Shown: positions 5,939 to 26,347 of the stretch, piece after piece
How the letters are laid out: every line of letters begins with the position of its first letter
How positions within the stretch are numbered: the first letter of the stretch is position 1
Assembly: GCA_965200315.1 (NCBI GenBank)
Contig: OZ241362.1
Coordinates: 576,001 to 640,000 of the forward strand
DNA length: 64,000 nucleotides
Reading direction: 5' to 3'
Origin: Candidatus Latescibacterota bacterium
Lineage (GTDB): Bacteria > Latescibacterota > UBA2968 > UBA8231
Notes under the pieces: model-generated
Seen by the model: the letters and a program-made list of their open reading frames with translations, nothing else
The model's database searches: none
What the model was told of the DNA's origin: nothing
Translations under genes and position numbers: made by a program

Positions 5939-8557
5939 ATGACCCAGACAGGCACCATTGAACCCACCGACTACGAGCGGTTGTTGCTGGTCTATCTCCA
6001 CGACCCGCTCGACAAGGCCCTCGACATCCGCGGACACGAAGCCCGCGCCGCCCGCTATGCTTCCTGCGCCCGCGGCTGGAGCGCGACTCGCGCTACCATA
6101 AAGCATGAGGCGCAATTAGCAGACCAACTCGCCGCCCGCGCCGAGCGCATCCCCATGCCGGCGGCAGGCTCCAAAGGAACGTGCGCCGTTGGTTTGGAAA
6201 ACGAGTGCATTGAGGTGCGCCATCCGGTGAGTGCCCAGTCCGCCGAGCTAACCGGGCTGGCCCTCAACGAGGACCGCATGATCGGCATCATCAACTCCAT
6301 CGTGGGCGACCTACCCGACGCCCCTCGTCCGCGCTTTCTCGCACTCTGGCGGCTGCTCCCCGCAAAGCTCGGCCCGCAGTTGGCGCGACTGCCAGCCGAC
6401 ACCCGCGTACCGGACCACACCCTGATCCAGCACACGGACATTACCAGCGGCCTGTGGGCCAGCCACCAAACTGTCCACGGAAGCGCGCTTTTGTCCTTGT
6501 CTCTAGGGCCAGTACAGACCTTCATCGAAGCGGCCCGCAGTGTGCGCGACCTGTGGACGGGTAGTGCTATTTTGTCGTGGCTGACGTTCCAAGGGCTGCG
6601 CCCGCTGCTGGCTGCCCTCGGCCCGACCGCACTCGTCTATCCGGCCCTGCGCGGCCATCCATTGATGGACCTATGGCTGCGCGAGCAGGGGTTAGAGCAG
6701 GTCGTGCCGCTTCCGTCCAAACAGGCCCTCCAGTCGCCCTCTATCCCCAACCGCTTCGTTGCCCTCGTGCCCAGCACCCAAGCCCAAAAGCTGGCGGACG
6801 CCTGCATCCAATCCGTTGAGCAGGCGTGGCGCGGCTTGGCGGACGATGTGAAAAAGTCCCTCGACCTCAAGCTATCGTCATTGGAGCCCGGTTGGGCCCA
6901 GCACTGGCAAGAGCAGGTAAACAGCTTCTTCGACATCCAAACCTCCATCCTGCACGAGCGCGACTTAGGCGACGCGGAACTGGCCCATCTAATCGGCGGG
7001 CACGGCTCGTTTGAGGCCGTGTGGCCTGAAGCGCACAAAGTTCGCCAGCTCGCCAACGCGATCCCAAAAGCAGAGCAACCCGGCTACGATCAAGGCTCAG
7101 CCGGCCGCTGGCAAGCCCAACTCGAAGCGTCGGCGCGGCTGATGGAAGCACAGCGGTCTATCCGCCACGTACCAGCCACTCCGATCGCAAGCCCCTCGCC
7201 CCCCAAGTGCAGCCTGCTCGGTTCTTACGAGCAAATGGGGCCGCCCGACCTAGCCGATTCTCGCCAATTCTGGGAAAAAGCCGCAGACAGACTCAAGCTC
7301 CACGGCGTCCGCCTGCGGCCCGGCGAGCGATTTTCCGCCATCGCCCTGTGCAAGCGGTTTGCCGCTCCAGCGTTTCTCGCCCGCGAACTTCGGCTCGAAC
7401 CGGCCGACCTGCGCTTCCCGGATACCGCCACGCTCGCGGCTGCACAATGGCTGGCGGAGGCCGACATTAACCCGGACGCCGTGCGGAGCGAGTACGGGGA
7501 CTGGAACGGCCGCTGGCTGCATCAGAATACCCGCGATGATGTGGACGAAGGCGACCAAGAGCCACCTCTGCCAATCTGGCAAAAGATCAAAAAAGCAAAA
7601 GAGCCCGAAAACGTGGGCGCACCCCCTGTTTACTACGCCATCCTAATGATGGACGCCGACGAGATGAGCCGTTGGCTGCGAGGCGACAACGCTCCACAGG
7701 TGCGTGAGGTTCTGCACCCGAAGATGGTTCGTTATTTCGAGGGGCTTGGGAGCCAAGGAGTGGGGGACGACCTCGACGCCAAGCGACCGGTCGGCCCAGC
7801 CCTACACGCCTCCATTAGCGAGGCACTCAACAATTTCGCCAGTCGCGTTGCCCCGAAAATCGTGCAGGACCAGCAGGACCACTACGGCACAACCATCTAT
7901 TCGGGCGGCGACGACGTCCTAGCTCTGCTGCCGATGCGCCAAGCGGTCGCCTGTGCGGTTGCCTTGCGCCGCGCCTTCCGCGGCGAGGAAGACACCCCCG
8001 GGGTGCCGCGTGGCTGGATCGAGCGCGATGGGCAACACCTGCTGACCATGGGCCACAAAGCCACGCTATCGGCCGGCATCGCCTTTGTCCATTACAAGGA
8101 GGATTTGCGCTTGGCCCTGCAAGCGGCCCGCGGCGCAGAAAAGACCGCCAAGAGCAGCGGGCGCAATCAGCTCGCACTCCGCTTCATGCGGCACGCTGGC
8201 AGCCACGACGAGGCCCTCGTGCCGTGGGCGTGGACGCCGCAGTTCCAATGCTTGGTCGAGACTTTTGCCAGCGGTGCGACTGACCGCTGGGCTTATCGCC
8301 TGAGAGCGGAATTGCCGACTTTGCAAGCGGACGCTCTGCCCGTCGCGGCTGTCAACGCCGAAATACGCCGGCTCGTCACGCGGACTGTTGACAATCCGTC
8401 CGATTCAAGTAGCCCGTCCGGCCAAGAAGTAGAGAATTGGTGGAAGGAGTTTTACACAGCCGGCAGCAAGCGTGGACGCACACACTCCGAGCTGCTTGAA
8501 GCCTTCACCTGCCTCTGCCAAGGGGCCTCTTTCGCCGCACGAGGTCGCGATGCCTAA
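5939..8557 (+). CDS. cas10: Type III-B Cas10/Cmr2
   Basis: LGPVQTFIEAARSVRDLWTGS, PNRF, MDADEM, intact YSGGDD cyclase motif; reduced HD-like N-terminus (LHDP). Confidence 0.97.
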   Translation: MTQTGTIEPTDYERLLLVYLHDPLDKALDIRGHEARAARYASCARGWSATRATIKHEAQLADQLAARAERIPMPAAGSKGTCAVGLENECIEVRHPVSAQSAELTGLALNEDRMIGIINSIVGDLPDAPRPRFLALWRLLPAKLGPQLARLPADTRVPDHTLIQHTDITSGLWASHQTVHGSALLSLSLGPVQTFIEAARSVRDLWTGSAILSWLTFQGLRPLLAALGPTALVYPALRGHPLMDLWLREQGLEQVVPLPSKQALQSPSIPNRFVALVPSTQAQKLADACIQSVEQAWRGLADDVKKSLDLKLSSLEPGWAQHWQEQVNSFFDIQTSILHERDLGDAELAHLIGGHGSFEAVWPEAHKVRQLANAIPKAEQPGYDQGSAGRWQAQLEASARLMEAQRSIRHVPATPIASPSPPKCSLLGSYEQMGPPDLADSRQFWEKAADRLKLHGVRLRPGERFSAIALCKRFAAPAFLARELRLEPADLRFPDTATLAAAQWLAEADINPDAVRSEYGDWNGRWLHQNTRDDVDEGDQEPPLPIWQKIKKAKEPENVGAPPVYYAILMMDADEMSRWLRGDNAPQVREVLHPKMVRYFEGLGSQGVGDDLDAKRPVGPALHASISEALNNFASRVAPKIVQDQQDHYGTTIYSGGDDVLALLPMRQAVACAVALRRAFRGEEDTPGVPRGWIERDGQHLLTMGHKATLSAGIAFVHYKEDLRLALQAARGAEKTAKSSGRNQLALRFMRHAGSHDEALVPWAWTPQFQCLVETFASGATDRWAYRLRAELPTLQADALPVAAVNAEIRRLVTRTVDNPSDSSSPSGQEVENWWKEFYTAGSKRGRTHSELLEAFTCLCQGASFAARGRDA

Positions 8558-9632
8558 CAGCGACATGCTCCTCCCTCTGCAACTTGCACCCGTCGACAGC
8601 CTCTTCTTCCGCGATGCACGCCCCTTTGAGGAGGCCAGTCGCGCCGCCTCTGGCCTGCCCATGCCCCAGACCCTCGCCGGTGCCTTGCGCACCCTGCTGC
8701 TGGAGCATCACAGCGTGGACTTTGCCCAGTTAGCGAATCAGATCAAGGCAGGCAAACCGTTCGCCGAAGCCCTCTCTATAATCTGCCCGGCCGCCGCTGG
8801 CGTGGCCGCAGTGCGCTTGCGCGGCCCCTTTTTCACGTTGTCCGGTGAAGTCTTGGTGCGGGTCCCAAGCACCCTAAAGCAAATCGAAAAAACCGAGCAA
8901 CTCGTGCGGCTCGATCCATTGCAAAAACCCCCGCCCGGTTGGCAACCCCAAGCACCGGGCATGGTGCCGCTGTGGAGGCATGGCCGCAAACCAGCCAAAG
9001 CAATCGACGGCTTCCTCAAGCCCTCGGGCTTGCACCACTTCCTCACCGGCGACGTACCAACGCCGGATGACGTGGTGGCATCTAACGACGTTTACGATTT
9101 TGACGACCGCACGGGCATCGGCCTAGACGAACAGAGCAACACCGCCCAAGAAAGCCTCATCTACGGCATCAAGATGCTCGCACTGTGCCCCAAAGCCGGT
9201 CTATACGCCGAAGTGCGGGGCCCGGCCGACGCCTTGGCACCGCTTGCCGCTCAGGACGAGCCGCTCCTCATGCCCTTTGGCGGCGAGGGTCGGCGCGTCG
9301 TCGTCCGTGCAGCAGAGCAAGCAACGAACTGGTCGCAAGTACCGGCCACAGCCGACAAGGGCCGGTTGGTGCTGCTGACGGCACCGGCCTACTTCAACGG
9401 CTGGAAGCCCCCAGCGCTGGAGCCGCTCGCCGCGGCCGTCGGCCAGTACCAAGCCGTTTCCGGCTGGGACTTAGCCCAAGGCGGCCCCAAGCCCAACCGC
9501 TTCATGGTCCCGGCCGGCTCGGTGTACTTTCTGCCACCCCATACCCATGTACCCAGCGCCCTAGTCAGCGAAGAAGATGACGCGCTCGGCTGGGGCAGCT
9601 TTCTAGAAGGAAATTGGACCTATGTCGGATAA
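8550..9632 (+). CDS. cmr3: Type III-B Cmr3 (Cas5 family)
   Basis: PVDSLFFRDARPF, FGGEGR, SGWDLAQGGPKP, VPAGSVY, LGWG. Confidence 0.95.
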   Translation: MPNSDMLLPLQLAPVDSLFFRDARPFEEASRAASGLPMPQTLAGALRTLLLEHHSVDFAQLANQIKAGKPFAEALSIICPAAAGVAAVRLRGPFFTLSGEVLVRVPSTLKQIEKTEQLVRLDPLQKPPPGWQPQAPGMVPLWRHGRKPAKAIDGFLKPSGLHHFLTGDVPTPDDVVASNDVYDFDDRTGIGLDEQSNTAQESLIYGIKMLALCPKAGLYAEVRGPADALAPLAAQDEPLLMPFGGEGRRVVVRAAEQATNWSQVPATADKGRLVLLTAPAYFNGWKPPALEPLAAAVGQYQAVSGWDLAQGGPKPNRFMVPAGSVYFLPPHTHVPSALVSEEDDALGWGSFLEGNWTYVG

Positions 9633-10518
9633 AACCCTGCTGTTCATGCACGCCCTGACCGGGTTGCACCCAGGCAGCGGCACGGCCCTCGGCGTAGTCG
9701 ATCTGCCGGTGCAGCGCGAACGCCATACCCACTGGCCGACCATCCCCGGCTCGTCGCTGAAGGGCGTCCTCCGCGCCGAATGCCGGCGGGTTCTTGGCCG
9801 GGGAGCCGAGGACCTGCTAACGGCTTTTGGGCCGGAGATGGGCAACGCATCGGACCACGCCGGGGCCGTCGCCTTTGTGGACGCCCGCATTCTCGCCTTT
9901 CCGGTGCGCTCGCTGACCGGGGTGTTTGCTTGGGTGACCTGCCCGGCGGTGCTGGAGTGCCTCGCCCGCGACTTGGGGCTTGTGAGCAGCAACAAGCTCC
10001 CCGCCTTCCCCACTCCGAAGAAAGACACCGCTGCCTGTGTGCCCAACAGCCCGCTAATCGCGCACGACGAGCACCTGCTGTTGGAGGAATTTGAATTCGC
10101 CCTCGCCCGTGCCGACGCCGACGCCGACGCCAGCAAGATCGCCGACTGGATTGCGTGTCATGCCGTGCAAGACGAGGGGACAAGGGGCCGGCTGCGCCGT
10201 CACTTGGCCGTTTTGCACGACGACGATTTCACGCACTTCGTCCGCAACGCCACCGAAGTCGTCGCCCGCGTCGGCTTGGACTACGAATCGAAGACCGTGC
10301 GTAAGGGGGCGCTCTTTTACGAGGAATACCTACCGGCCGAGACCTTGTTCTATTCGCTGGTGCTGTCTAGCGACAGCCGCCGAGAATCGAATTCCAAAAG
10401 TGCCGCCCAGATCTTATCGTGGCTCCGCGACAACGCACCCACCGTGATTCAGATCGGCGGCGGCGAGACCGTTGGCAAGGGGCTATGTGCGGTCCACTTT
10501 GCGGAGGACATGCCATGA
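9622..10518 (+). CDS. cmr4: Type III-B Cmr4 (Cas7 family RNase)
   Basis: LHPGSG, VDLPVQRE (catalytic Asp), IPGSSLKG, QIGGGETVGKG. Confidence 0.97.
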   Translation: MSDKTLLFMHALTGLHPGSGTALGVVDLPVQRERHTHWPTIPGSSLKGVLRAECRRVLGRGAEDLLTAFGPEMGNASDHAGAVAFVDARILAFPVRSLTGVFAWVTCPAVLECLARDLGLVSSNKLPAFPTPKKDTAACVPNSPLIAHDEHLLLEEFEFALARADADADASKIADWIACHAVQDEGTRGRLRRHLAVLHDDDFTHFVRNATEVVARVGLDYESKTVRKGALFYEEYLPAETLFYSLVLSSDSRRESNSKSAAQILSWLRDNAPTVIQIGGGETVGKGLCAVHFAEDMP

Positions 10519-10919
10519 GCACACTCGACCAGCGCCGGGCACAACACGCTTGGGACGCCGTAGAGCAAGCGGCCAAACTCAAAGAAGACGACAAGAAAAC
10601 CTTCGCCCGCGAGGCCAAGAAGCTCCCCATCCGCATCAAGACCGCAGGGCTTGGGCAAGCCGTTGCCTTTCTCCGTGCCAAGAAAGACAAGAAAAAGCGA
10701 GAAGATGAAGATCCTCGCATACGCCTACTGAGAGAGCTTGGCAACTGGCTCCTCGACGAGCGTGGCCTAGAGTCGCCTTCGCAGGATGAGGACGCCCTAA
10801 TCCAAGCCATCATCCGCGGCGACGCCGACCTGCTGCGCCGCGCCACCGAAGAGGCCCTGTTGTACTTGCAATGGCTGACGCGCTTTGCCGAAGCAGAAAT
10901 CGGGACCGGAGATGACTAA
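10515..10919 (+). CDS. cmr5: Type III-B Cmr5 (Cas11)
   Basis: TLDQRRAQHAW, LPIRIKTAGLGQAVAF, WLTRFAEA; ATGA overlap with cmr4. Confidence 0.93.
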   Translation: MSTLDQRRAQHAWDAVEQAAKLKEDDKKTFAREAKKLPIRIKTAGLGQAVAFLRAKKDKKKREDEDPRIRLLRELGNWLLDERGLESPSQDEDALIQAIIRGDADLLRRATEEALLYLQWLTRFAEAEIGTGDD

Positions 10920-13340: not shown

Positions 13341-14045
13341 ATGGAAGTTTTGAACTCATTGGCCGCCAAACCAACGCGGCCCCTATTGGAAAACGGCGAC
13401 CGGCTCACGCGAGCGGAATTTGAGCAACGCTACGAGGCCATGCCCGAAGTAAAAAAGGCCGAACTCATCAATGGAGTAGTATATATGGGCTCCCCCGTTC
13501 GCTTTCGTGCCCACGGCCACCCACACGTATTGCTGCTCACTTGGCTAGGGACATATAGCGCATTCACCCCAGGGGTTCTTTGTGCGGACAACGCCACGGT
13601 GCGGCTCGGGGCCGATAGCGAGCTTCAGCCGGATGCCTTGCTGCGCCTAGAGTTAGAGGTGGGGGGAAAGTCGCGGATTAGCACCGACGATTACGTAGAA
13701 GGCCCTCCAGAGTTAGTTGCCGAAATCGCAGCTAGCAGCACCTCGTACGATATGCACGATAAAATGGACGTGTATCGCCGCAGCGGTGTGCCGGAATACC
13801 TAGTCTGGCGCGTGTACGACGAGCAACTCGACTGGTTTGCCTTGCACGACGGTGCGTATATCCGCCTACTGCCCGATACGGCGGGCGCGATTTCGAGCGA
13901 CATATTTCCGGGGTTGCGATTGTTCCCATCGGCCTTGTTGGCCCATAATGCGGCGCAAGTCGTGGCCGAATTGCAAAAAGGCCTGGCGACGACCGCGCAC
14001 ACCGCGTTTATTGATCGCTTAGGAAGCGAAAAACCCAATGCCTAG
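13341..14045 (+). CDS. Uma2 family (DUF820) PD-(D/E)XK endonuclease
   Basis: AELINGVVYM, QPDALL, GPPELVAEIA, GVPEYLVW, FPGL. Confidence 0.9.
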   Translation: MEVLNSLAAKPTRPLLENGDRLTRAEFEQRYEAMPEVKKAELINGVVYMGSPVRFRAHGHPHVLLLTWLGTYSAFTPGVLCADNATVRLGADSELQPDALLRLELEVGGKSRISTDDYVEGPPELVAEIAASSTSYDMHDKMDVYRRSGVPEYLVWRVYDEQLDWFALHDGAYIRLLPDTAGAISSDIFPGLRLFPSALLAHNAAQVVAELQKGLATTAHTAFIDRLGSEKPNA

Positions 14046-14103
14046 ACACACTCTTATATGCACCATTGGCACCCACAACGCGCGCAAGCGCAAGGAGAGC
14101 ACC

Positions 14104-15222
14104 ATGACGACAATGCCTAGACACACCCTCATCTGCACCATTGGCACCAGCTTGTTCTACCCCAACCTGTCCAAGCTCGCGCAAACGAATCCAACGAATC
14201 CGCTAGGCAAGGCGTATGCGGGGCAAAAATGGAAGAACGTAGCCAGCCAACTGCATCTGCTTGAACCTACTGATCGGCAGTGTGGAGCCGAGATCAACTC
14301 GGTAGCCGATCTCCTACGCCGCGAATACATCGACAAGGTTCACTTACATCTGCTGTATTCCGATACGTCGGATGGAGAGCACATTGCCGCTGTCTTGGAC
14401 GCGTACTTTGCGGACGATGGCTGGCAGGTGCAAACCCATAGAGTATGCGATTTAAGCGACCAAGATCCGAGGGCGTTTCGCACCCGCGGCTTGCGCAACC
14501 TAGCCAAAATTCTCGGCCAATTGGTGCGCGACGCCGGGCCAGACTACTGCGCCATCAACGCTACCGGCGGCTACAAGGCGCAGATCGCCATTGCCGTGCT
14601 CATGGGTCAAGCCCTCGGCATTCCGGTGTACTACAAGCACGAGCGTTTTGATGAAATTATTCCCTTTCCGCCCATGCCAGTGGCCCTCGATTTTTCGCTC
14701 TGGCTCCGGGCCAGCGGCATGTTTACAGCACTCAGCCAGCCCAACGCCTGCGTGCCGGAGGCGCAGTTCAGCGAGGACTGGGATGAGCGCTTTGAGCCGC
14801 TGGTCGAACGGGTATCTATCGACGGCGTAAACTACCTCGAACTCTCGGCGACCGGCCAGATTTTTCACGACACCTTCCGTTCGCGTTTTCAGCAGCAGCA
14901 AGCCGGCAGCCTGCCGCCCGAGTCAAGCAAAAAGGAGGACCCTGAGCTGGGAGCGCACAGCTACAAAAACGCACACGAAACCATTTCGCGCTTTTTGCAA
15001 AAAATCACCGATGAGCGGCCTTACGTCCGTTCCTGTCACTCAACGTACTGGAACCCGGACCTACCTGAAGCGAATCGATTTCGCCTGTCCGGCGGACAAG
15101 TCCAAGGCATCTACTCGAACAGAACTTGGTGCGTGAAGTTCACAGTGCTTACAACCGCCAGCGAGCAGGACGACTTAGGCGTTGTCGTGGCCGATCTCAA
15201 CGAGTGGCTTAGTGATCAATAG
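14104..15222 (+). CDS. CARF-domain type III ancillary protein (APE2256-like) with uncharacterised C-terminal domain
   Basis: LICTIGTSL, GAEINS, INATGGYKA, YYKHERF; SD AAGGAG before ATG 14104. Confidence 0.88.
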   Translation: MTTMPRHTLICTIGTSLFYPNLSKLAQTNPTNPLGKAYAGQKWKNVASQLHLLEPTDRQCGAEINSVADLLRREYIDKVHLHLLYSDTSDGEHIAAVLDAYFADDGWQVQTHRVCDLSDQDPRAFRTRGLRNLAKILGQLVRDAGPDYCAINATGGYKAQIAIAVLMGQALGIPVYYKHERFDEIIPFPPMPVALDFSLWLRASGMFTALSQPNACVPEAQFSEDWDERFEPLVERVSIDGVNYLELSATGQIFHDTFRSRFQQQQAGSLPPESSKKEDPELGAHSYKNAHETISRFLQKITDERPYVRSCHSTYWNPDLPEANRFRLSGGQVQGIYSNRTWCVKFTVLTTASEQDDLGVVVADLNEWLSDQ

Positions 15223-15239: not shown

Positions 15240-16289
15240 ATGGCGACTTCATTGCTCACTCTCTACGTCACCGAACCGTCCGCTGTAGTTCGCCGCTCGG
15301 CTGGCTCCCTCATCGTCACCCTCGACGAAGACCCAGACGGCGGCGGCCCCTTGCCCGAGCGTCGCCATCGCCTCCTTGAGGTGGAGCCGCATCGCTTGGA
15401 GCTGATTGCGCTGGTTGGCCGCGCCCATATCACTTTAGACGCAACGCGGCTTTGCTTGGAGCAAGGCATTGCGGTCGCTTGGTTTCGCCGCAACGGCGAC
15501 TTTATCGGCCGCCTCGTGCCCGAGCTATCGCGCACAGCCGATCTGCGCTTGGCCCAGTTTCGCCTCGCCGACGACGAGCAGCGAGCACTGCCGCTAGCCC
15601 AAACCTTTGTCGCTGCTAAGCTCCACAATGCGGCCTCTGTGCTCGCGGCCCTGCGCTCCAACCGCCGTAACGAGCCGACCCTCGGACGCTCCATAAGTGA
15701 ACTCAAGGCCCTCGCCGCAACGGTTGACCAAGCATCCACCCGGGAAACTCTACTCGGGTTTGAGGGCGATGCGGCCCGCCGCTACTTTGCCGGCCTCAAA
15801 ATCGGCTTCACCAGCGACATCCGCTTTACTAGGCGCGCCCGCCGGCCGCCGCCGGACCCGGCCAATGCTCTGCTCTCGTTTGGCTACGTGCTGTTGGCCA
15901 ATGCCTTGGCCAGCCTACTGGAGGCCCGCGGCTTTGACCCGTATTTAGGCTTTATGCACACGGTGCGTTCCGGTCGGCCCAGTTTGGCTCTCGACCTGCT
16001 CGAAGAATTGCGGCATCCGGTGGTCGATCGCTTTGTCTTGCGGGCCTGCAATTTGCGCCAGTTGCGGCCCGCCCACTTTGAGACCGATCCAAAGCGGGGT
16101 GGTGTACGTCTTACACCCGCTGGGTTGCGCGTTTTCTTTCGCATTTGGGAAGCATTTATGGACGCGCCCCTACCCGGGACTGGAGACACTATTTCGCCGG
16201 AAGATTTGCTCCGCCGTCAAGCCGACCGCTTAGCCGATCACGTGAGGGGACGCCAGCCATACCAGCCCTTGCTTCTGCGCCACGTATAA
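15240..16289 (+). CDS. cas1: Cas1 (no RT or Cas4 fusion)
   Basis: GFEGDAARRYF, PPPDPANALLSFGY, GFMH, LALDLLEELR. Confidence 0.97.
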   Translation: MATSLLTLYVTEPSAVVRRSAGSLIVTLDEDPDGGGPLPERRHRLLEVEPHRLELIALVGRAHITLDATRLCLEQGIAVAWFRRNGDFIGRLVPELSRTADLRLAQFRLADDEQRALPLAQTFVAAKLHNAASVLAALRSNRRNEPTLGRSISELKALAATVDQASTRETLLGFEGDAARRYFAGLKIGFTSDIRFTRRARRPPPDPANALLSFGYVLLANALASLLEARGFDPYLGFMHTVRSGRPSLALDLLEELRHPVVDRFVLRACNLRQLRPAHFETDPKRGGVRLTPAGLRVFFRIWEAFMDAPLPGTGDTISPEDLLRRQADRLADHVRGRQPYQPLLLRHV

Positions 16290-16300
16290 GGAGCGTTGCC

Positions 16301-16588
16301 ATGTCTCATTATGTCGTCTGCTACGATGTGGTCGATAACCGCCGCCGCTACAAGGTGGCTGCTTGTCTGGATGCCTATGGCGACCGCGTACAGGACAGCG
16401 TGTTTGAACTGCCCGTGGATCGCACACTCTTGGATAAATGCCTCGTCGCGCTTGCAGATTTGATCGACCCAGACAAAGACAACATCGCTGTCTATCGCCT
16501 ATGCACCACTTGCGCGAGCGAGCGTTTCTATTTGGGAACGGGCGCAAGGGCTGGGCGCATCGGCGAGGAGCAGGTCTTTATTGCATAA
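16301..16588 (+). CDS. cas2: Cas2
   Basis: YVVCYDV...RVQDSVFE; SD AAGGAG. Confidence 0.96.
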   Translation: MSHYVVCYDVVDNRRRYKVAACLDAYGDRVQDSVFELPVDRTLLDKCLVALADLIDPDKDNIAVYRLCTTCASERFYLGTGARAGRIGEEQVFIA

Positions 16589-16784
16589 AGGACATTCGTA
16601 ACCTTCATTCCTCCTCCAAACGAAAGGGGATTACGAATTTGACTAAGCCTTTGAATTTCTTATCTTTACATGCCACGCACTCACACGGATGCCGCTGCGG
16701 TAGGCAGAGCTTATACGCTCCGCCATTGGGTTACGAAATTCGTCCAGCTAACTGCTTGTTAGACAAGCAAATAGCCGAGATGGA
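16589..16784 (+). promoter_or_regulatory. CRISPR leader
   Basis: Less GC-rich non-coding segment between cas2 and the first repeat; degenerate repeat lies at the opposite end. Confidence 0.75.
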
Positions 16785-19700
16785 GTGTGAAATGTTGCCC
16801 CGATTTCTAGGGGATTGAAACTTACGCCGACCTGGACCCGGCCGGTGGCCCGGGCCCGGCGTGTGAAATGTTGCCCCGATTTCTAGGGGATTGAAACGCT
16901 GGGTGCGGGGATACTGAAAAGTCGTCATTACGATCTCGTGTGAAATGTTGCCCCGATTTCTAGGGGATTGAAACTGCGGGGTGGGTGGAGCGGGGGGGGG
17001 GGGGTTAGGCGCGTGTGAAATGTTGCCCCGATTTCTAGGGGATTGAAACGCCGAAGCCAACGGTCACGCCAGGACAGCACTGCCCCCTCGTGTGAAATGT
17101 TGCCCCGATTTCTAGGGGATTGAAACTCCGACATGCCCGCCTGCCTGAGGGCGAGGCGGACGAAGTGTGAAATGTTGCCCCGATTTCTAGGGGATTGAAA
17201 CGATAACAACTATCCTCCGCCCGGAGGCGGGGGTTTGCCTGTGTGAAATGTTGCCCCGATTTCTAGGGGATTGAAACCTGCCGCACCGTGGTGGCGGGGG
17301 GAAGGTTGAGAATGGGGGTGTGAAATGTTGCCCCGATTTCTAGGGGATTGAAACCCGATGACCGCCATCGCTTCGAGGAATTCACGGAAGCGGGGTGTGA
17401 AATGTTGCCCCGATTTCTAGGGGATTGAAACTTGATGGCCGCAGGGGTCTTCGGCTCGAACCGGGGCGCGTGTGAAATGTTGCCCCGATTTCTAGGGGAT
17501 TGAAACACTGCTTCGATGGTGCTCATGATGATTCCTTTCTGAAAGGGTGTGAAATGTTGCCCCGATTTCTAGGGGATTGAAACCCGCCCGGTAGGCCGGC
17601 CCGCCCGTGGCGAGCAAGATAAAGTGTGAAATGTTGCCCCGATTTCTAGGGGATTGAAACTATAGGGCTTTTGGAGTTTACAAAAAAGTTAGGCACGGGT
17701 GTGAAATGTTGCCCCGATTTCTAGGGGATTGAAACCTTTGGTGGCCGCTGGCGCGCGCGCCTCGAACCGGGGCGCCGGCGTGTGAAATGTTGCCCCGATT
17801 TCTAGGGGATTGAAACTCCTTCTTGGAGGACACCGCGCCGATCGCCATCCCTATTGTGTGAAATGTTGCCCCGATTTCTAGGGGATTGAAACTGTGCTGC
17901 GGGGGTGGCTTGAGTCGTCATTGTAACAAGTGTGAAATGTTGCCCCGATTTCTAGGGGATTGAAACCGGGGGCGGTTTTCTGAGTGGTCGTCATAACAAT
18001 CTCCGTGTGAAATGTTGCCCCGATTTCTAGGGGATTGAAACCCTCCACCTGGTGGTAGGCGTGGCCGTAGCCATCGCCGTGTGAAATGTTGCCCCGATTT
18101 CTAGGGGATTGAAACCTTCTGCCTGGTAATGCAGGAAGGCCAACGTATGGCGGGTGTGAAATGTTGCCCCGATTTCTAGGGGATTGAAACTGCCATTGAT
18201 TGTGAGGGTGGCGGGGCCCTCGAGGGGTACGTTGTGTGAAATGTTGCCCCGATTTCTAGGGGATTGAAACAGGAGCTGCCGACAGCGGCTCACGACGAGA
18301 CCCGCTGCACGTGTGAAATGTTGCCCCGATTTCTAGGGGATTGAAACACAATCCCCTCTCCGCGAGGGGTTTCGGCGCGCGCCCCGACGATGGGGGCCGC
18401 GCCGACTTCCGTGTGTGAAATGTTGCCCCGATTTCTAGGGGATTGAAACCGCGACATAGCGGATGAGCTCCGCCTCTTTGGCAGGCTCGTGTGAAATGTT
18501 GCCCCGATTTCTAGGGGATTGAAACTGACCACCACCGCCTCAAGGAGTTCACGGCAGCGGGTCATGTGTGAAATGTTGCCCCGATTTCTAGGGGATTGAA
18601 ACAAGAAATACCAACCCGCGACTAACTCGCGCGGAACATCTTGTGTGAAATGTTGCCCCGATTTCTAGGGGATTGAAACGCGATAATAAAGCAATGCGTT
18701 TCATTTCAATCTCCTAATGGTGTGAAATGTTGCCCCGATTTCTAGGGGATTGAAACCTTCTTGGAGGTGGCCGTGGTGGTCATGCTATTCTCCTTCCCCG
18801 TGTGAAATGTTGCCCCGATTTCTAGGGGATTGAAACTCTCCTTGCCCCTGTGGGGCTATGAGAGTTAGTACAAAAAAGGTGTGAAATGTTGCCCCGATTT
18901 CTAGGGGATTGAAACCTTCTTGGAGGTGGCCGTGGTGGTCATGCTATTCTCCTTCCCCGTGTGAAATGTTGCCCCGATTTCTAGGGGATTGAAACTCTCC
19001 TTGCCCCTGTGGGGCTATGAGAGTTAGTACAAAAAAGGTGTGAAATGTTGCCCCGATTTCTAGGGGATTGAAACGCAGCTTCTCGAAGACCTCCCGCGAT
19101 GCTCTGCGGCGATGGTGTGAAATGTTGCCCCGATTTCTAGGGGATTGAAACATTGGGCAGTACGAAAGTTGTCATACGATTCTCCTTGCCCGTGTGAAAT
19201 GTTGCCCCGATTTCTAGGGGATTGAAACGGACGAGGGACGTGCGGGCGGTTAGGAGTTTCATTTTCAATGTGTGAAATGTTGCCCCGATTTCTAGGGGAT
19301 TGAAACACAGACGACGGCGACCAAGTGAATCGGCAGGGTGCCGATCAGTGTGAAATGTTGCCCCGATTTCTAGGGGATTGAAACTGCAATCTCCTCTAGT
19401 GCGGCCGTTATGGCCTCCGAGAGAGTGTGAAATGTTGCCCCGATTTCTAGGGGATTGAAACGCGATAATAAAGCAATGCGTTTCATTTCAATCTCCTAAT
19501 GGTGTGAAATGTTGCCCCGATTTCTAGGGGATTGAAACCTTCTTGGAGGTGGCCGTGGTGGTCATGCTATTCTCCTTCCCCGTGTGAAATGTTGCCCCGA
19601 TTTCTAGGGGATTGAAACTCTCCTTGCCCCTGTGGGGCTATGAGAGTTAGTACAAAAAAGGTGTGAAATGTTGCCCCGATTTCTAGGGGATTGAAACGCA

Positions 19701-22700
19701 GCTTCTCGAAGACCTCCCGCGATGCTCTGCGGCGATGGTGTGAAATGTTGCCCCGATTTCTAGGGGATTGAAACATTGGGCAGTACGAAAGTTGTCATAC
19801 GATTCTCCTTGCCCGTGTGAAATGTTGCCCCGATTTCTAGGGGATTGAAACGGACGAGGGACGTGCGGGCGGTTAGGAGTTTCATTTTCAATGTGTGAAA
19901 TGTTGCCCCGATTTCTAGGGGATTGAAACACAGACGACGGCGACCAAGTGAATCGGCAGGGTGCCGATCAGTGTGAAATGTTGCCCCGATTTCTAGGGGA
20001 TTGAAACTGCAATCTCCTCTAGTGCGGCCGTTATGGCCTCCGAGAGAGTGTGAAATGTTGCCCCGATTTCTAGGGGATTGAAACCCGCGCCAGCTTGTAC
20101 TTATACGTCATCATTGCGCGGCGGTGTGAAATGTTGCCCCGATTTCTAGGGGATTGAAACTTCCATTCTCCTTTTTTACGGTGCATGCCTTGACAAACCA
20201 GTGTGAAATGTTGCCCCGATTTCTAGGGGATTGAAACCCTTTCCCCCCAAAACGCACACGGCGCACGGCCGCTAAGTGTGAAATGTTGCCCCGATTTCTA
20301 GGGGATTGAAACCTCCTTGCCCCGTTAGGGGCTCTCTATGGAGTGAATACAAGTGTGAAATGTTGCCCCGATTTCTAGGGGATTGAAACTCGTCATCTTT
20401 CTCTTTCTCCTTCTCCTTTCTTTCTTGTGTGAAATGTTGCCCCGATTTCTAGGGGATTGAAACCTCCGCCTTATGGATTTGATGGCGGCGGCGGTCGGCC
20501 TCGTGTGAAATGTTGCCCCGATTTCTAGGGGATTGAAACTTGGGGGACAGCCGGACGGCGTTGTCGTACTCCTCAACGGGTGTGAAATGTTGCCCCGATT
20601 TCTAGGGGATTGAAACACGGTTTCGCGGACGGACTGGGACTGCTGGGTGCTGCTGGGTGTGAAATGTTGCCCCGATTTCTAGGGGATTGAAACGGGGCGA
20701 GCCCCCAGTTCCCGCAGAATATTGTCCACCATCCGTGTGAAATGTTGCCCCGATTTCTAGGGGATTGAAACGATGGCACGGGTTGAACTGGTGCTGCTGG
20801 ACTGCATGCTGCGTGTGAAATGTTGCCCCGATTTCTAGGGGATTGAAACCATGTGAAGAAGTAATAGCCTTCGGGGCGTGCTGCCCCGTGTGTGAAATGT
20901 TGCCCCGATTTCTAGGGGATTGAAACCTGCCGCGCCCCTTCATGGCTAAGGTCGCGGGGGGCTATGTGTGAAATGTTGCCCCGATTTCTAGGGGATTGAA
21001 ACCCAGGCCCGCGCGCCAACACTGTGCTCCTCTACATCTACGTGTGAAATGTTGCCCCGATTTCTAGGGGATTGAAACGCGAGACTGCTGGGTGCGGGGG
21101 TACTGGAACGTGGTCATGTGTGAAATGTTGCCCCGATTTCTAGGGGATTGAAACCGGCGGCGGCCTTCTGCCTCAGCCCAGGCGCGCAGCCCCCGTGTGA
21201 AATGTTGCCCCGATTTCTAGGGGATTGAAACCAACTTCGGCCATTCGGCCGCCTGAAAATATAGTTCAAGTGTGAAATGTTGCCCCGATTTCTAGGGGAT
21301 TGAAACGGCGGGAGGGGTGGGGCGGGGGGCTATGCGCGGCCGGCGGGTGTGAAATGTTGCCCCGATTTCTAGGGGATTGAAACATGCTTTTCTCCTTCTT
21401 TGGGGGTGAAAAAAACTGGTTTCGGTGTGAAATGTTGCCCCGATTTCTAGGGGATTGAAACTTGTGCAATACTTTTTTTCTCTTATTCCCCACTTTTCAC
21501 GTGTGAAATGTTGCCCCGATTTCTAGGGGATTGAAACATCCCGATGCGGGCGAAGCGCGTAAGGGTCTCGATGGTCTCGGTGTGAAATGTTGCCCCGATT
21601 TCTAGGGGATTGAAACTCATGGGTGGCCTCCTTGAGCTGGGCGAGTAGCTCCGGAGAGTGTGAAATGTTGCCCCGATTTCTAGGGGATTGAAACCCGCGA
21701 CATTCTCATCGCGGGCGGCATCGAGCCGCTCTTCGTGTGAAATGTTGCCCCGATTTCTAGGGGATTGAAACACCTCCCCAAGGATGAGCGTAAGGTGCAG
21801 GTACAGCGCTGTGTGAAATGTTGCCCCGATTTCTAGGGGATTGAAACAAGCTAGAGCGTTTTTTCGATAGTTCGTCGGGCACCTCCGGTGTGAAATGTTG
21901 CCCCGATTTCTAGGGGATTGAAACTATTTCTGCTGGCTTCAAGCTCGGCGTGGGCTGAGCCGCCCTGTGCGGCCTACGTGTGAAATGTTGCCCCGATTTC
22001 TAGGGGATTGAAACAGATCTACGGTTGCGCGGATGCGCGCATCGCGCTCCGCAGGTGTGAAATGTTGCCCCGATTTCTAGGGGATTGAAACGTCGTGCCC
22101 AGGACGTGGGAGGCTAACCGCTTTCGCGGCGTGTGAAATGTTGCCCCGATTTCTAGGGGATTGAAACGGAGTCGGAGTCGTAGCGGGACCAGTCCCTTAT
22201 GAGGACAGGTGTGAAATGTTGCCCCGATTTCTAGGGGATTGAAACCTGACCGACGCGGTGAAGTGCGACGTCACCTTGTCGATGTGTGAAATGTTGCCCC
22301 GATTTCTAGGGGATTGAAACACGTAGACTACCGTCGCCTTCTCCTCGCCGTCCGCCGACTCCGGTGTGAAATGTTGCCCCGATTTCTAGGGGATTGAAAC
22401 GTGGCGCGACACGAAGATATTCATTTCAATCTCCTTGGGAGTGTGAAATGTTGCCCCGATTTCTAGGGGATTGAAACGTGCTGCGAGACTGCGACTGCTG
22501 ATTGGGGTACTGAAAAGGTGTGAAATGTTGCCCCGATTTCTAGGGGATTGAAACTCAGTAACCTCTGGCGGCGCGAACTTCGGCGTCGCGCATGTGTGAA
22601 ATGTTGCCCCGATTTCTAGGGGATTGAAACAGGATTAGGTGGGTGTGGGGGGCTAACCCCACGGATTTGGAGAGTGTGAAATGTTGCCCCGATTTCTAGG

Positions 22701-25316
22701 GGATTGAAACCGCGTCCCCGGAGGGGTTTTAACGTGCAATTCCCAACCGTGTGAAATGTTGCCCCGATTTCTAGGGGATTGAAACTGCTGCTGGTTTGGC
22801 AGTACGAAAGTTGTCATGCGAGTGTGTGAAATGTTGCCCCGATTTCTAGGGGATTGAAACATCTTGTAGGTGGTCATAGTTCAATCCTCTCGGTTGGCGA
22901 GGTGTGAAATGTTGCCCCGATTTCTAGGGGATTGAAACGGAAATACAACTCTACTTCTACTTTCTTCATCTTCATGAGTGTGAAATGTTGCCCCGATTTC
23001 TAGGGGATTGAAACCATAGACATCGACGCGGTAGACCGCGACACCAACTTCAGTGTGAAATGTTGCCCCGATTTCTAGGGGATTGAAACTCTGCGAGAGA
23101 CTCGCGGAGCTCGTTTTCGCCCATGCCGAGTGTGAAATGTTGCCCCGATTTCTAGGGGATTGAAACGGGGATGCCGTTTGTCTCCAATTCGGCGCGGGCG
23201 CGGGTGTGAAATGTTGCCCCGATTTCTAGGGGATTGAAACACGGGTTGCGTGCGCGTGCCCACTACCTCGTACTAGGAGGTGTGAAATGTTGCCCCGATT
23301 TCTAGGGGATTGAAACACGCCGGTTGGCCGAGCCGGGGGCCTTGCCAGTGCGGCCGGGTGTGAAATGTTGCCCCGATTTCTAGGGGATTGAAACGAAAGG
23401 ATGCGCATGAGTGTTCGGGGGCCGGGCGTCATCGTGTGAAATGTTGCCCCGATTTCTAGGGGATTGAAACGGACCGGCGCGTGCGGGTTAGTGGGCGCTG
23501 CGCATGATCTCGTGTGAAATGTTGCCCCGATTTCTAGGGGATTGAAACGTGAATAACCACGCCTCCCTCTTCGGGGGCGGCGGCCTTGGGTGTGAAATGT
23601 TGCCCCGATTTCTAGGGGATTGAAACGCTACTGCGCTGTCGACCAATCCGAAGATGCGCGAAGGCGTGTGAAATGTTGCCCCGATTTCTAGGGGATTGAA
23701 ACACCAGTCATGTAGAGATGGCACGGAGTACTTCCCGTGAGGGTGTGAAATGTTGCCCCGATTTCTAGGGGATTGAAACTCTGCGAGAGACTCGCGGAGC
23801 TCGTTTTCGCCCATGCCGAGTGTGAAATGTTGCCCCGATTTCTAGGGGATTGAAACGGGGATGCCGTTTGTCTCCAATTCGGCGCGGGCGCGGGTGTGAA
23901 ATGTTGCCCCGATTTCTAGGGGATTGAAACACGGGTTGCGTGCGCGTGCCCACTACCTCGTACTAGGAGGTGTGAAATGTTGCCCCGATTTCTAGGGGAT
24001 TGAAACACGCCGGTTGGCCGAGCCGGGGGCCTTGCCAGTGCGGCCGGGTGTGAAATGTTGCCCCGATTTCTAGGGGATTGAAACGAAAGGATGCGCATGA
24101 GTGTTCGGGGGCCGGGCGTCATCGTGTGAAATGTTGCCCCGATTTCTAGGGGATTGAAACGGACCGGCGCGTGCGGGTTAGTGGGCGCTGCGCATGATCT
24201 CGTGTGAAATGTTGCCCCGATTTCTAGGGGATTGAAACGTGAATAACCACGCCTCCCTCTTCGGGGGCGGCGGCCTTGGGTGTGAAATGTTGCCCCGATT
24301 TCTAGGGGATTGAAACGCTACTGCGCTGTCGACCAATCCGAAGATGCGCGAAGGCGTGTGAAATGTTGCCCCGATTTCTAGGGGATTGAAACACCAGTCA
24401 TGTAGAGATGGCACGGAGTACTTCCCGTGAGGGTGTGAAATGTTGCCCCGATTTCTAGGGGATTGAAACGCGAGCTTCTCCGCCGCGGCGCGTTTCACGC
24501 CGGCCGCGGTGTGAAATGTTGCCCCGATTTCTAGGGGATTGAAACCGGCCGTGCTCGCTGGCGTCATACTGAAAGGATGCGCATGAGTGTGAAATGTTGC
24601 CCCGATTTCTAGGGGATTGAAACTAGTTCTCCCGGGGCTCGCTACGGGGCCATACAAAAACGGTGTGAAATGTTGCCCCGATTTCTAGGGGATTGAAACT
24701 CGGTGCGCTGCTCGGTGGTGCGGGTTTCTTTTTTAGCAGGTGTGAAATGTTGCCCCGATTTCTAGGGGATTGAAACCTGCTGCGCCCGCCGGTGGCGCCG
24801 CAGAGCAGCCCCCGGTGTAAAATGTTGCCCCGATTTCTAGGGGATTGAAACCGGACTATCCGGCGTCAAAAAGGCAACTAGAAGCTACAGTGTGAAATGT
24901 TGCCCCGATTTCGAGGGGATTGAAACAGTTTCCCCCCCCTCGAAGACGTGGTAATGAGCTAGGGGCTGTGTGAAATGTTGCCCCGATTTCTAGGGGATTG
25001 AAACGGCACTGTAGTGCTCGAAGGCTAGTTGGTGGCGGATGGCGTGTGAAATGTTGCCCCGATTTCTAGGGGATTGAAACTGCCAGCGCAAACAACGCGC
25101 TGGGGTGAAATGCAACTGCGTGTGAAATGTTGCCCCGATTTCTAGGGGATTGAAACCCATGCGCTGGGCCTCGTCGTAGACGATGAACGGGTAGGTGGTG
25201 TGAAATGTTGCCCCGATTTCTAGGGGATTGAAACCCTGGTAAGCGGTAAGGCTATCACACACTCGCTACTATTTAACCAGTATAAAATGTTACCCCCATT
25301 ATCAGGGAATCGACAC
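16785..25316 (+). CRISPR. CRISPR array, ~111 repeats / ~110 spacers (~91 unique)
   Basis: 37-nt repeat GTGTGAAATGTTGCCCCGATTTCTAGGGGATTGAAAC with CCCC/GGGG stem and ATTGAAAC 3' tag; spacers mostly 37-44 nt; degenerate last repeat at 25280-25316. Confidence 0.99.
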
Positions 25317-25356: not shown

Positions 25357-25519
25357 ATTTATAAAGTTGCGTCCACCGCCTGCTTGACGCTCTAAAAACA
25401 AAGGCATTATTTAGCGGCTGGGCGATCAGACTGAAGCTCTTTTGCTATGGATTGGCGCGAGCACCTCGACTACCCCCGGGTGCGCGGGCGTCTCGCCCGC
25501 TTTGCGTGTCACTTTTACT

Positions 25520-26347
25520 ATGGATTGGCGCGAGCACCTCGACTACCTACTCTCTTGCGTTCAGATACAGGCGCGGCTGTTGCTGCTAGACACGCCTCTA
25601 GTTGAAGCGACCACGCCCATGTTGCGGGGCGTCTGGGGGCGGGCACTGCGGCATTTGGACGAGGAGGCGTATCAGCAGGTGTTCGCAGGCGACATGCTGG
25701 GGCATCGGCGCGTCCCCCGCTACATCCTGAGGCCAGCACCCCCCGACCCAGCGACTGCACCGGCCATCGAATGGCTCTTGCTCGGAGTCCACGAAAATTT
25801 AGAAGAAGTATTGTGGCGGGCTTGGGACGTGGCCAGCGGCATGGGGCTGGGGCCTGAGCGCACACCCTTTCGCGTACGCGAATGGCGACCGCTGGGCGCG
25901 GATAAATGGGACTTATCCACTGCAACCTGGCCCCTGCCCGGCGACCCCGCCACTACGCCGTGCCGCCTGCATTTCCCTACATCCCTGCGACTGCTCCGGG
26001 GCGGCAAACTGCTTTCCACCCCAAACTTAGAGGATGTGGCGACAGCTACCACACGCCGCATCGCCACGCTAGCCGGCACAACCAGCGGAGAAACCTATCG
26101 AGATTTAATCCGAAATATCGGTCAGGTGGCCGCCGGGCTAGCGGGTGCTCCGTGGCGCGGGCGGCGGTTCGACTTTGTGCGCTGGTCCGGTGCCCAACAG
26201 CGCGAGCTAAACATGCGCGGCGTGACCGGCGACTTAGCCCTGCCCACAGGGCCCGGCCCACTCTGGCCGCTATTGGCCGCCGCTTGCTGGACCCATATTG
26301 GCAAAGGCACGGTCTTTGGGCTAGGCCAATTGCACATCACACCGTAA
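25520..26347 (+). CDS. cas6: Cas6 crRNA-processing endoribonuclease
   Basis: MLRGVWG, FPTSLRL, C-terminal G-rich loop HIGKGTVFGLG. Confidence 0.9.
   Translation: MDWREHLDYLLSCVQIQARLLLLDTPLVEATTPMLRGVWGRALRHLDEEAYQQVFAGDMLGHRRVPRYILRPAPPDPATAPAIEWLLLGVHENLEEVLWRAWDVASGMGLGPERTPFRVREWRPLGADKWDLSTATWPLPGDPATTPCRLHFPTSLRLLRGGKLLSTPNLEDVATATTRRIATLAGTTSGETYRDLIRNIGQVAAGLAGAPWRGRRFDFVRWSGAQQRELNMRGVTGDLALPTGPGPLWPLLAAACWTHIGKGTVFGLGQLHITP

Follow-up and report, generated by a model that had tools for sequence, protein, structure and literature searches.

We examine the CRISPR array at positions 16785-25234 (array 1) of a 64,000-nucleotide (nt) stretch of DNA, hereafter the window, from a Candidatus Latescibacterota bacterium (GenBank assembly GCA_965200315.1, contig OZ241362.1, positions 576,001 to 640,000 of the forward strand). 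The array accompanies a set of Cmr genes that looks like a type III-B locus. Its spacers return repeatedly to a few gene 5′ regions, and this repeated sampling is a stronger signal than the excess of spacers that carry a Shine-Dalgarno (SD) motif followed by ATG. Around 16 of the 90 unique spacers appear to cover a start codon, mainly, we suggest, because a handful of promoter-proximal 5′ regions have been sampled again and again.

We give roughly even credence to the reading that this pattern reflects transcription-linked, 5′-biased uptake, independent of a protospacer-adjacent motif (PAM), by a type III Cas1-Cas2 pair that lacks a reverse transcriptase (RT). Such a pair would prefer DNA just downstream of active early promoters, as well as hairpin-forming DNA. 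Promoter-proximal 5′ regions, consisting of the 5′ untranslated region (5′UTR), the SD motif and the first 40-50 nt of coding sequence, would be sampled repeatedly from diverged phage variants, and selection would then keep only the spacers that are antisense to early transcripts. The frequently sampled regions would on this account be promoter-proximal and early, and the bias would arise at uptake.

Repeated sampling of gene 5′ regions

An all-against-all alignment of the 332 spacers in both arrays of the genome (array 2 is described below) groups 68 of them into 28 clusters of homologous spacers, six of which fall on start codons. These amount to six of the 17 clusters, counted from the cluster listing, that include an array 1 spacer. 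Depending on the gene spacing that is assumed, the probability of at least six start-codon clusters is 0.018-0.19 for the full 28 and 0.001-0.023 for the 17. The 5′ region of one gene, the hot gene, is tiled from about −47 to +46 by at least six array 1 spacers and one array 2 spacer (spacers are named by their first position, in the window for array 1 and in the genome for array 2; Table 1). The array 2 spacer, 130096, covers the start of the same hot-gene variant as 16898 and 21079. The tiling spacers come from two or more diverged variants and do not sit together in the array, which suggests acquisition on separate occasions from phages that had diverged. Some 100 nt around a single start codon, probably close to a promoter, thus take a disproportionate share of the spacers. 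Five candidates for this region (20313, 17661, 17893, 20617 and 20772) have alignment scores of 10-13, which is chance level. A second gene is also hit repeatedly, by spacers 18526, 17355 and 129715.

Within the 16 protospacers that we curated as likely to contain a start codon, the codon has a mean index of 13, compared with about 19.5 if it were placed uniformly. This shift toward the 5′ part of the protospacer fits a peak of uptake just inside the open reading frame (ORF). Array 1 is also rich in hairpin-forming DNA: a fold z score below −2 is seen for 17 of 90 protospacers, whereas control 40-mers reach it in 4-9% of cases (p=1e-5 to 2e-3). The corresponding share is 9.9% in array 2 and 6.5% in arrays of related genomes that have the same repeat core (367 spacers, from arrays that were read in part; hereafter the relatives' arrays). 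The ends of array 1 spacers show no clear base bias at the twelve positions considered (smallest p=0.036, uncorrected), which fits PAM-independent uptake as judged from the spacer ends rather than from protospacer flanks. Two features that PAM-independent, hairpin-favouring uptake would leave are thus both found in array 1.

Interpretation of the SD-ATG motif depends on orientation. Array 1 is transcribed on the + strand; the degenerate repeat and the only two variant repeats (24815 and 24890) are found at its distal, 25.2-kb end, and all cas genes are on the + strand. The orientations of homologous spacer pairs and the codon model, both given below, and the tag at the 3′ end of the repeat point the same way. 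The host relies strongly on SD motifs, with a peak at −13 to −9 across 2710 long ORFs, so the motif is meaningful in this organism. We used a loose pattern (GGAG, AGGA or GAGG, then 3-10 nt, then ATG) along with mid-stringency and strict versions. Of the 90 unique spacers of array 1, 12 match the loose pattern on the target-sense strand and 3 match it on the spacer strand; the counts are 9 versus 2 for the mid-stringency version and 5 versus 0 for the strict one. Pooled over 699 spacers, 54 carry the motif on the target-sense strand and 23 on the other (p=5e-4). A codon model trained on host ORFs, with an accuracy of 78% on host 40-mers, calls the target-sense strand coding for 58/90 spacers in array 1, 149/242 in array 2 and 226/367 in the relatives. 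Homologous spacer pairs scoring at least 15 are co-oriented in 44 cases and opposed in four. Taken together, the motif counts, the codon model and the pair orientations indicate from sequence that the CRISPR RNAs (crRNAs) of array 1 are mostly antisense to phage mRNAs. One of the four opposed pairs is formed by array 2 spacers 135868 and 136400, which match at 17/17 nt in opposite orientation; the locus they target may be transcribed on both strands.

The initial annotation had proposed comparing the SD-ATG frequency of the two strands, and the comparison indeed comes out unequal. Such an asymmetry is, however, expected for any type III array, so the question becomes one of rate.

Gene starts were called from the SD-ATG motif, from short reading frames and from similarity among homologous spacers. 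The initial annotation had counted about 14 clear SD spacers; its observation is confirmed in part, but the count was somewhat high, as eight are clear (17507, 17967, 18680, 18757, 19152, 20390, 22401 and 22861), all of them among those it had named. Three others on its list are weaker. There is one base between AAGGAG and ATG in 20161, the G of the ATG falls outside the spacer in 21384, and 21617 was rejected as a start, since homologous array 2 spacers read through the site as in-frame coding sequence. About eight further spacers have a likely start codon inside, with the SD motif cut off by the spacer boundary, and the curated set stands at 16 of 90. Among the additional starts that had been proposed, also about eight, homologous spacers support 16898, 21079, 22786 and 18526, while 17893 and 19229 are only plausible. 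The pair 23395/24546, which had been flagged as a possible sense-oriented exception, is borne out: they share a 16-nt overlap, and in each the SD-ATG lies on the strand of the spacer itself.

Together with 21617, three more of the 12 loose-pattern hits were rejected, 22015 because of a stop seven codons past the ATG, and 18450 and 25157 because the ATG lies at the extreme end with a weak SD motif. We further note that the sequence GATTGAA stands between SD and ATG in 18680, 22401, 22861 and 19229 as well as in array 2 spacers 134591 and 146623. It resembles the 3′ end of the repeat itself (GGGGATTGAAAC) and may merely be a common context of phage ribosome-binding sites.

Rate of start-codon spacers and competing explanations

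The loose pattern is found in 13.3% of spacers in array 1, 8.7% in array 2 and 5.7% in the relatives' arrays. As controls we took the phages T7, D3112 and phiC31, whose genes run nearly all in one direction. Their sense-strand 40-mers carry the pattern at 7.5% (8.7% in the early and middle regions), 4.0% and 1.1%, respectively, and the probability of at least 12 of 90 at these rates is 0.04 for T7, 3e-4 for D3112 and 4e-10 for phiC31. Array 1 also differs from the relatives' arrays (12/90 versus 21/367, p=0.02). For the curated 16 of 90, the binomial p ranges from 2e-5 to 0.1 with a gene spacing that is assumed in place of a phage map: it stays at or below 0.001 with genes at least 500 bp apart and rises to 0.01 at 400 bp and to 0.1 at 300 bp. 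The start-codon excess thus appears, from the motif counts, real in direction and modest in size; it seems confined to this genome, dependent on the gene density of the targets and episodic.

Several observations weigh against 5′-biased uptake. Array 1 and array 2 do not differ significantly (12/90 versus 21/242, Fisher p=0.22), and array 1 exceeds T7 sense-strand windows only about 1.3-2-fold (p=0.04-0.33, by stringency and T7 region). Relatives' loci with at least 12 spacers show rates of 0-10% each, 5.7% when pooled, so the effect is not a general property of the repeat family; it is absent or weak both in these arrays and in array 2. The 16 curated starts are all found among the 70 younger unique spacers, with none among the 20 older ones (p=0.018), which points to an episode tied to particular phages and not to a standing feature of the uptake machinery. 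Within the hot-gene tiling, several of the links score 10-13, values that are also reached by chance. The published work shows such a mechanism in a firmicute III-A system, whereas the present system is III-B (Cmr) and belongs to an uncultured Latescibacterota. Finally, no phage bearing a protospacer was recovered in the collections searched, and no spacer was placed on a real gene map.

Those collections were searched in several ways. No match came from a megablast of array 1 in full against 50,697 phage records, nor from exact-pattern scans of IMG/VR with a 21-mer, a 20-mer and a degenerate pattern of 30 nt. A 17-mer found four IMG/VR contigs, which have only 17-20 nt in common with the spacers and were dismissed as chance. 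Scanning metagenomes with the 30-nt degenerate pattern returned nothing; a metagenome contig found with a 21-mer conserved in three array 2 spacers matches over 21-22 nt and matches no other spacer, and was rejected as a target. BLAST of positions 18600-20500 of the window against 31 genomes of the genus returned only related CRISPR arrays, and a degenerate pattern for the hot-gene 5′ region returned only the array itself from 168 genomes of the phylum. The genome contains no protospacer by self-search, the best match outside the arrays being a 21-nt identity at 1,961,794 with unrelated flanks. A look for public sequencing runs found none listed. We also tried to recognise intergenic targets by counting spacers in which each of the three frames has a stop, and dropped the measure, which is uninformative at this GC content.

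It is possible, though we lean against it, that there is no positional bias within genes at all, the targets being densely packed with short early ORFs whose SD motifs are strong, so that an antisense 40-mer would frequently include a start, and the clusters reflecting the same few phages met again. The T7 windows, which already reach 7.5% (8.7% in the early and middle regions), speak for this, as do the rate in array 2, which is not different from that of array 1, and the confinement of start spacers to the younger part of the array. The initial annotation had itself cautioned that short early genes could explain part of the pattern, and the caution is well placed: the excess is no longer significant if the targets are as gene-dense as T7, and neither is the 16 of 90 if genes lie about 300 bp apart (p=0.1). 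On the other hand, six of the 17 array 1 clusters fall on starts, with p=0.023 even at a prior of 14%, and some 100 nt surrounding a single start codon carry seven or more spacers. The hairpin excess and the shift of start codons to the 5′ part of protospacers also argue against gene density as the whole explanation.

An origin of the bias at interference is unlikely. In this account uptake is even, and the only crRNAs that protect well enough to be kept are those pairing with early transcripts at their 5′ ends, which are made first and are free of ribosomes. Selection does act on these arrays, as indicated by the orientation of homologous pairs (44 versus 4), and for the Thermus phage phiFa it is reported that only spacers in a "hot" early region protected the cells, the others giving no immunity (PMC7515739). 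In Streptococcus thermophilus, however, the early-gene and start-proximal bias is described as arising at uptake, independently of interference (PMC13575424). Two or three of spacers 17661, 18837 and 20313 reach some 45-57 nt upstream of the ATG, into what is possibly untranscribed promoter DNA, which uptake fits more easily; moreover, selection for early transcripts alone does not predict a focus on the first 50 nt. The interpretation in the initial annotation is supported in part. It had included 5′-biased acquisition without an RT among its explanations. The premise that there is no RT holds in the sequence searched, and the idea has published backing in another type III system. Selection for the earliest target sites, another of its explanations, has a precedent in the phiFa work, but uptake is not separable from selection here because no target phage was found.

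We regard as doubtful a more specific version in which the focus of the Cmr system is the initiation region itself (5′UTR hairpin, SD motif and ATG) and not the 10-50 bp inside the ORF. If it were true, start-proximal uptake could be general and independent of subtype in RT-less type III systems, reaching a distant uncultured phylum; alternatively, Cmr immunity could gain from crRNAs that pair with early phage mRNAs at the initiation region, where ribosomes are absent.

That the Cmr-crRNA complex acts mainly by occluding ribosome-binding sites and so favours SD/ATG spacers, the translational blocking raised in the initial annotation, is very improbable: only the co-location of spacers with SD and ATG speaks for it, whereas at least 74 of the 90 unique spacers lie off starts, several hot-spot spacers are wholly in the coding region or wholly upstream of the SD motif, and Cas10 keeps its GGDD motif with a CARF gene in the operon, which leaves the usual route of signalling open without recourse to occlusion. 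The mechanism was not met in PMC8860593, PMC13575424 or PMC7515739, and no literature search aimed at it was made.

The Cmr locus and the two arrays

The window sits in a single-contig genome of 5.36 Mb with 59% GC. The locus looks, by its sequence matches, like an ordinary type III-B (Cmr) system, complete and functional in appearance (Table 1). It has predicted Cas10/Cmr2, Cmr3, Cmr4, Cmr5, Cmr6, Cmr1 and Cas6 genes, a repeat that ends in a tag, and antisense crRNAs. Cmr4, Cmr5, Cmr6 and Cmr1 score above their profile cut-offs and Cmr3 falls just under its own. The Cmr6 and Cmr1 matches lie within one ORF of 776 residues, an apparent fusion, and a gene for a Uma2-family putative restriction endonuclease is placed between the cmr genes and the CARF gene. 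No reverse transcriptase is fused to Cas1 or found beside it, the protein of 349 residues giving Cas1 matches only. A search of the 5.36 Mb genome for RVT_1 gave no match, while the same search gives matches in 3 of 14 control genomes, and no cas3 match above the curated cut-off was found in the genome. Far from both arrays, on the minus strand at genome positions 3005896-3012114, three further ORFs with RAMP domains probably form a second type III effector module.

Array 1 consists of 110 copies of a 37-nt repeat whose 3′ end is ATTGAAAC, which we take to be a typical 8-nt crRNA tag. Its 109 spacers are mostly 37-44 nt long and reduce to 90 unique ones because three blocks are duplicated, in close agreement with the initial estimate of about 91. 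The repeated blocks, which comprise 2, 8 and 9 spacers and are present in two or three copies (18680-20047; 23090-24432), point to internal recombination or to an effect of long-read assembly. Two spacers are over-long, at 18348-18412 (65 nt) and 21925-21977 (53 nt); the 65-nt spacer folds into two strong hairpins (minimum free energy −40 kcal/mol, z=-3.3).

Array 2, at genome positions 129,082-147,678, has 246 repeats and 242 unique spacers, and the 3′ half of its repeat is as in array 1. Beside it lie genes for Cas1, Cas6, a CRISPR-associated primase-polymerase (NF040561, E=6e-107), a CARF protein, an HD protein and an AAA-ATPase/PD-(D/E)XK protein, with effector genes absent from its immediate surroundings. 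Five or more of its spacers hit targets that array 1 spacers also hit. Spacer ends in array 2 and in the relatives' arrays are biased, with an excess of T/C at positions 1-2 and, in array 2, of C at −3 (p down to 1e-5). Possibly the bias is a signature, PAM-like or left by processing, of the Cas1 module associated with the primase-polymerase.

Table 1. Predicted genes, array elements and spacers discussed in the text, by position in the window
Feature	Position	Strand	Remarks
Cas10/Cmr2, 872 aa	5939..8557	+	TIGR02577 E=7e-65, 219.8 bits vs cut-off 79.4; GGDD at residue 656 of the translation
Cmr3	8472..9632	+	TIGR01888 E=1.7e-28, 99.8 bits vs cut-off 100.4
Cmr4, backbone RAMP	9622..10518	+	TIGR02580 E=1.4e-75
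Cmr5	10419..10919	+	TIGR01881 E=7.5e-18
Cmr6-Cmr1 apparent fusion ORF, 776 aa	10885..13215	+	TIGR01898 at residues 110-283, TIGR01894 at residues 308-493; two RAMP matches
Uma2-family putative nuclease, inside operon	13341..14045	+	PF05685 E=6e-30
CARF-family protein (Cas_APE2256)	14038..15222	+	PF09651 E=4.6e-33; TIGR02619
Cas1, 349 aa, without RT domain	15240..16289	+	TIGR00287 E=3.4e-71
Cas2, domain in residues 55-125 of the listed ORF	16145..16588	+	PF09827 E=3e-18
Leader	16589..16784	+	GC 47% vs 59% for the genome
CRISPR array (array 1)	16785..25234	+	Duplicated blocks starting 18680/19462, 18757/18916/19539, 23090/23780
Spacer over hot-gene start, variant MTTFQYPR	16898..16937	+	Second from leader; 23/23 nt identical to array 2 spacer
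Spacer homologous to 18526	17355..17394	+	A few nt further into the coding region
SD-ATG spacer (MSTIEA)	17507..17546	+	
SD-ATG spacer (MTTTQKTAP)	17967..18004	+	
Spacer beginning at ATG, second repeatedly hit gene (MTRCRELL)	18526..18565	+	Homologous: 17355, array 2 129715
SD-ATG spacer (MKRIALLS)	18680..18719	+	Copy 19462; 16-nt ribosome-binding stretch in common with 22401
SD-ATG spacer (MTTTATSKK)	18757..18799	+	Copies 18916, 19539
Spacer antisense to 5′UTR, GC hairpin then AAGGAG	18837..18878	+	Target overlaps that of 19152 by 11 nt; copies 18996, 19619
Spacer antisense to SD and ATG, hot-gene variant MTTFVLPN	19152..19191	+	Copy 19775
Probable homologous 5′UTR spacer (hairpin and AAGGAG)	20313..20352	+	Alignment score 13, near chance
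Purine-rich, low-complexity SD-ATG spacer	20390..20426	+	
Spacer at +1 to +39 of same gene variant as 16898	21079..21117	+	
SD-ATG spacer (MNIFVSRH)	22401..22440	+	
Spacer at about +7 to +46, hot-gene family	22478..22517	+	Weak link, alignment score 10
Second spacer on start codon of 19152, diverged variant	22786..22823	+	20/20 nt in common with 19152
SD-ATG spacer (MTTYK)	22861..22901	+	Homologous array 2 spacers 134591, 146623
Exception, SD-ATG on spacer strand	23395..23433	+	Overlaps 24546; copy 24085
Second sense-oriented exception spacer	24546..24586	+	
Last spacer and degenerate terminal repeat (trailer end)	25235..25316	+	
Cas6	25442..26347	+	PF10040 E=2e-10

Comparison with known type III systems

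How type III systems that acquire from DNA and target RNA obtain useful, transcribed, early targets is a current question. Acquisition from RNA is one route, since RT-Cas1 type III systems such as that of Marinomonas mediterranea would also give spacers biased to expressed genes (as cited in PMC8860593). Unlike these, the present system has a Cas1 of ordinary composition and no RT in the genome by the search described above.

The conventional Cas1-Cas2 of the Thermus thermophilus type III systems that face phage phiFa offers a second comparison. The retained spacers against phiFa are antisense and fall in the small "hot" early region, as might be the case here (PMC7515739). The bias there is ascribed to the survival of protected cells, together with a terminal repeat region that is injected first, and not to gene starts (PMC7515739); the terms "start codon" and "promoter" were not found in the text consulted.

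The closest likeness is with the III-A system of S. thermophilus, which is also RT-less. Its new spacers are independent of PAM and of orientation, and uptake is concentrated at promoters, at attenuators in 5′UTRs, in the stretch 10-50 nt downstream of start codons and in hairpin-forming DNA (PMC8860593, NAR 2021). During phage infection a hotspot lies just downstream of an early promoter and arises at uptake, independently of interference (PMC13575424, NAR 2026). This hotspot is abolished by a −10 mutation, is enhanced by a start-codon mutation and is seen in natural spacers too (PMC13575424). The start-proximal peak depends on transcription and not on translation or interference (PMC8860593, PMC13575424).

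Two differences concern the pattern itself. Many spacers of array 1 span the SD motif and the ATG, rather than the 10-50 bp downstream, and the excess is modest and unseen in most related arrays. A III-B array of an uncultured phylum that combines hits on 5′UTRs and starts with a hairpin excess and no RT is a hint, and only a hint, of a rule that spans subtypes and phyla, because its excess is modest, genome-specific and not mappable on a phage.

The similarities extend to several levels. Both systems have an RT-less Cas1-Cas2, and the lack of an end motif in array 1 fits the PAM-independent uptake of S. thermophilus. Spacers gather at 5′UTRs, start codons and the first tens of nt of the ORF in S. 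thermophilus and appear to do so in array 1. In both, one small 5′ region takes a large share of the spacers, hairpin-forming DNA is over-represented, and the bias is present in natural arrays. The pattern of array 1 thus appears to fit the published precedents, to which it would add a III-B example from an uncultured phylum.

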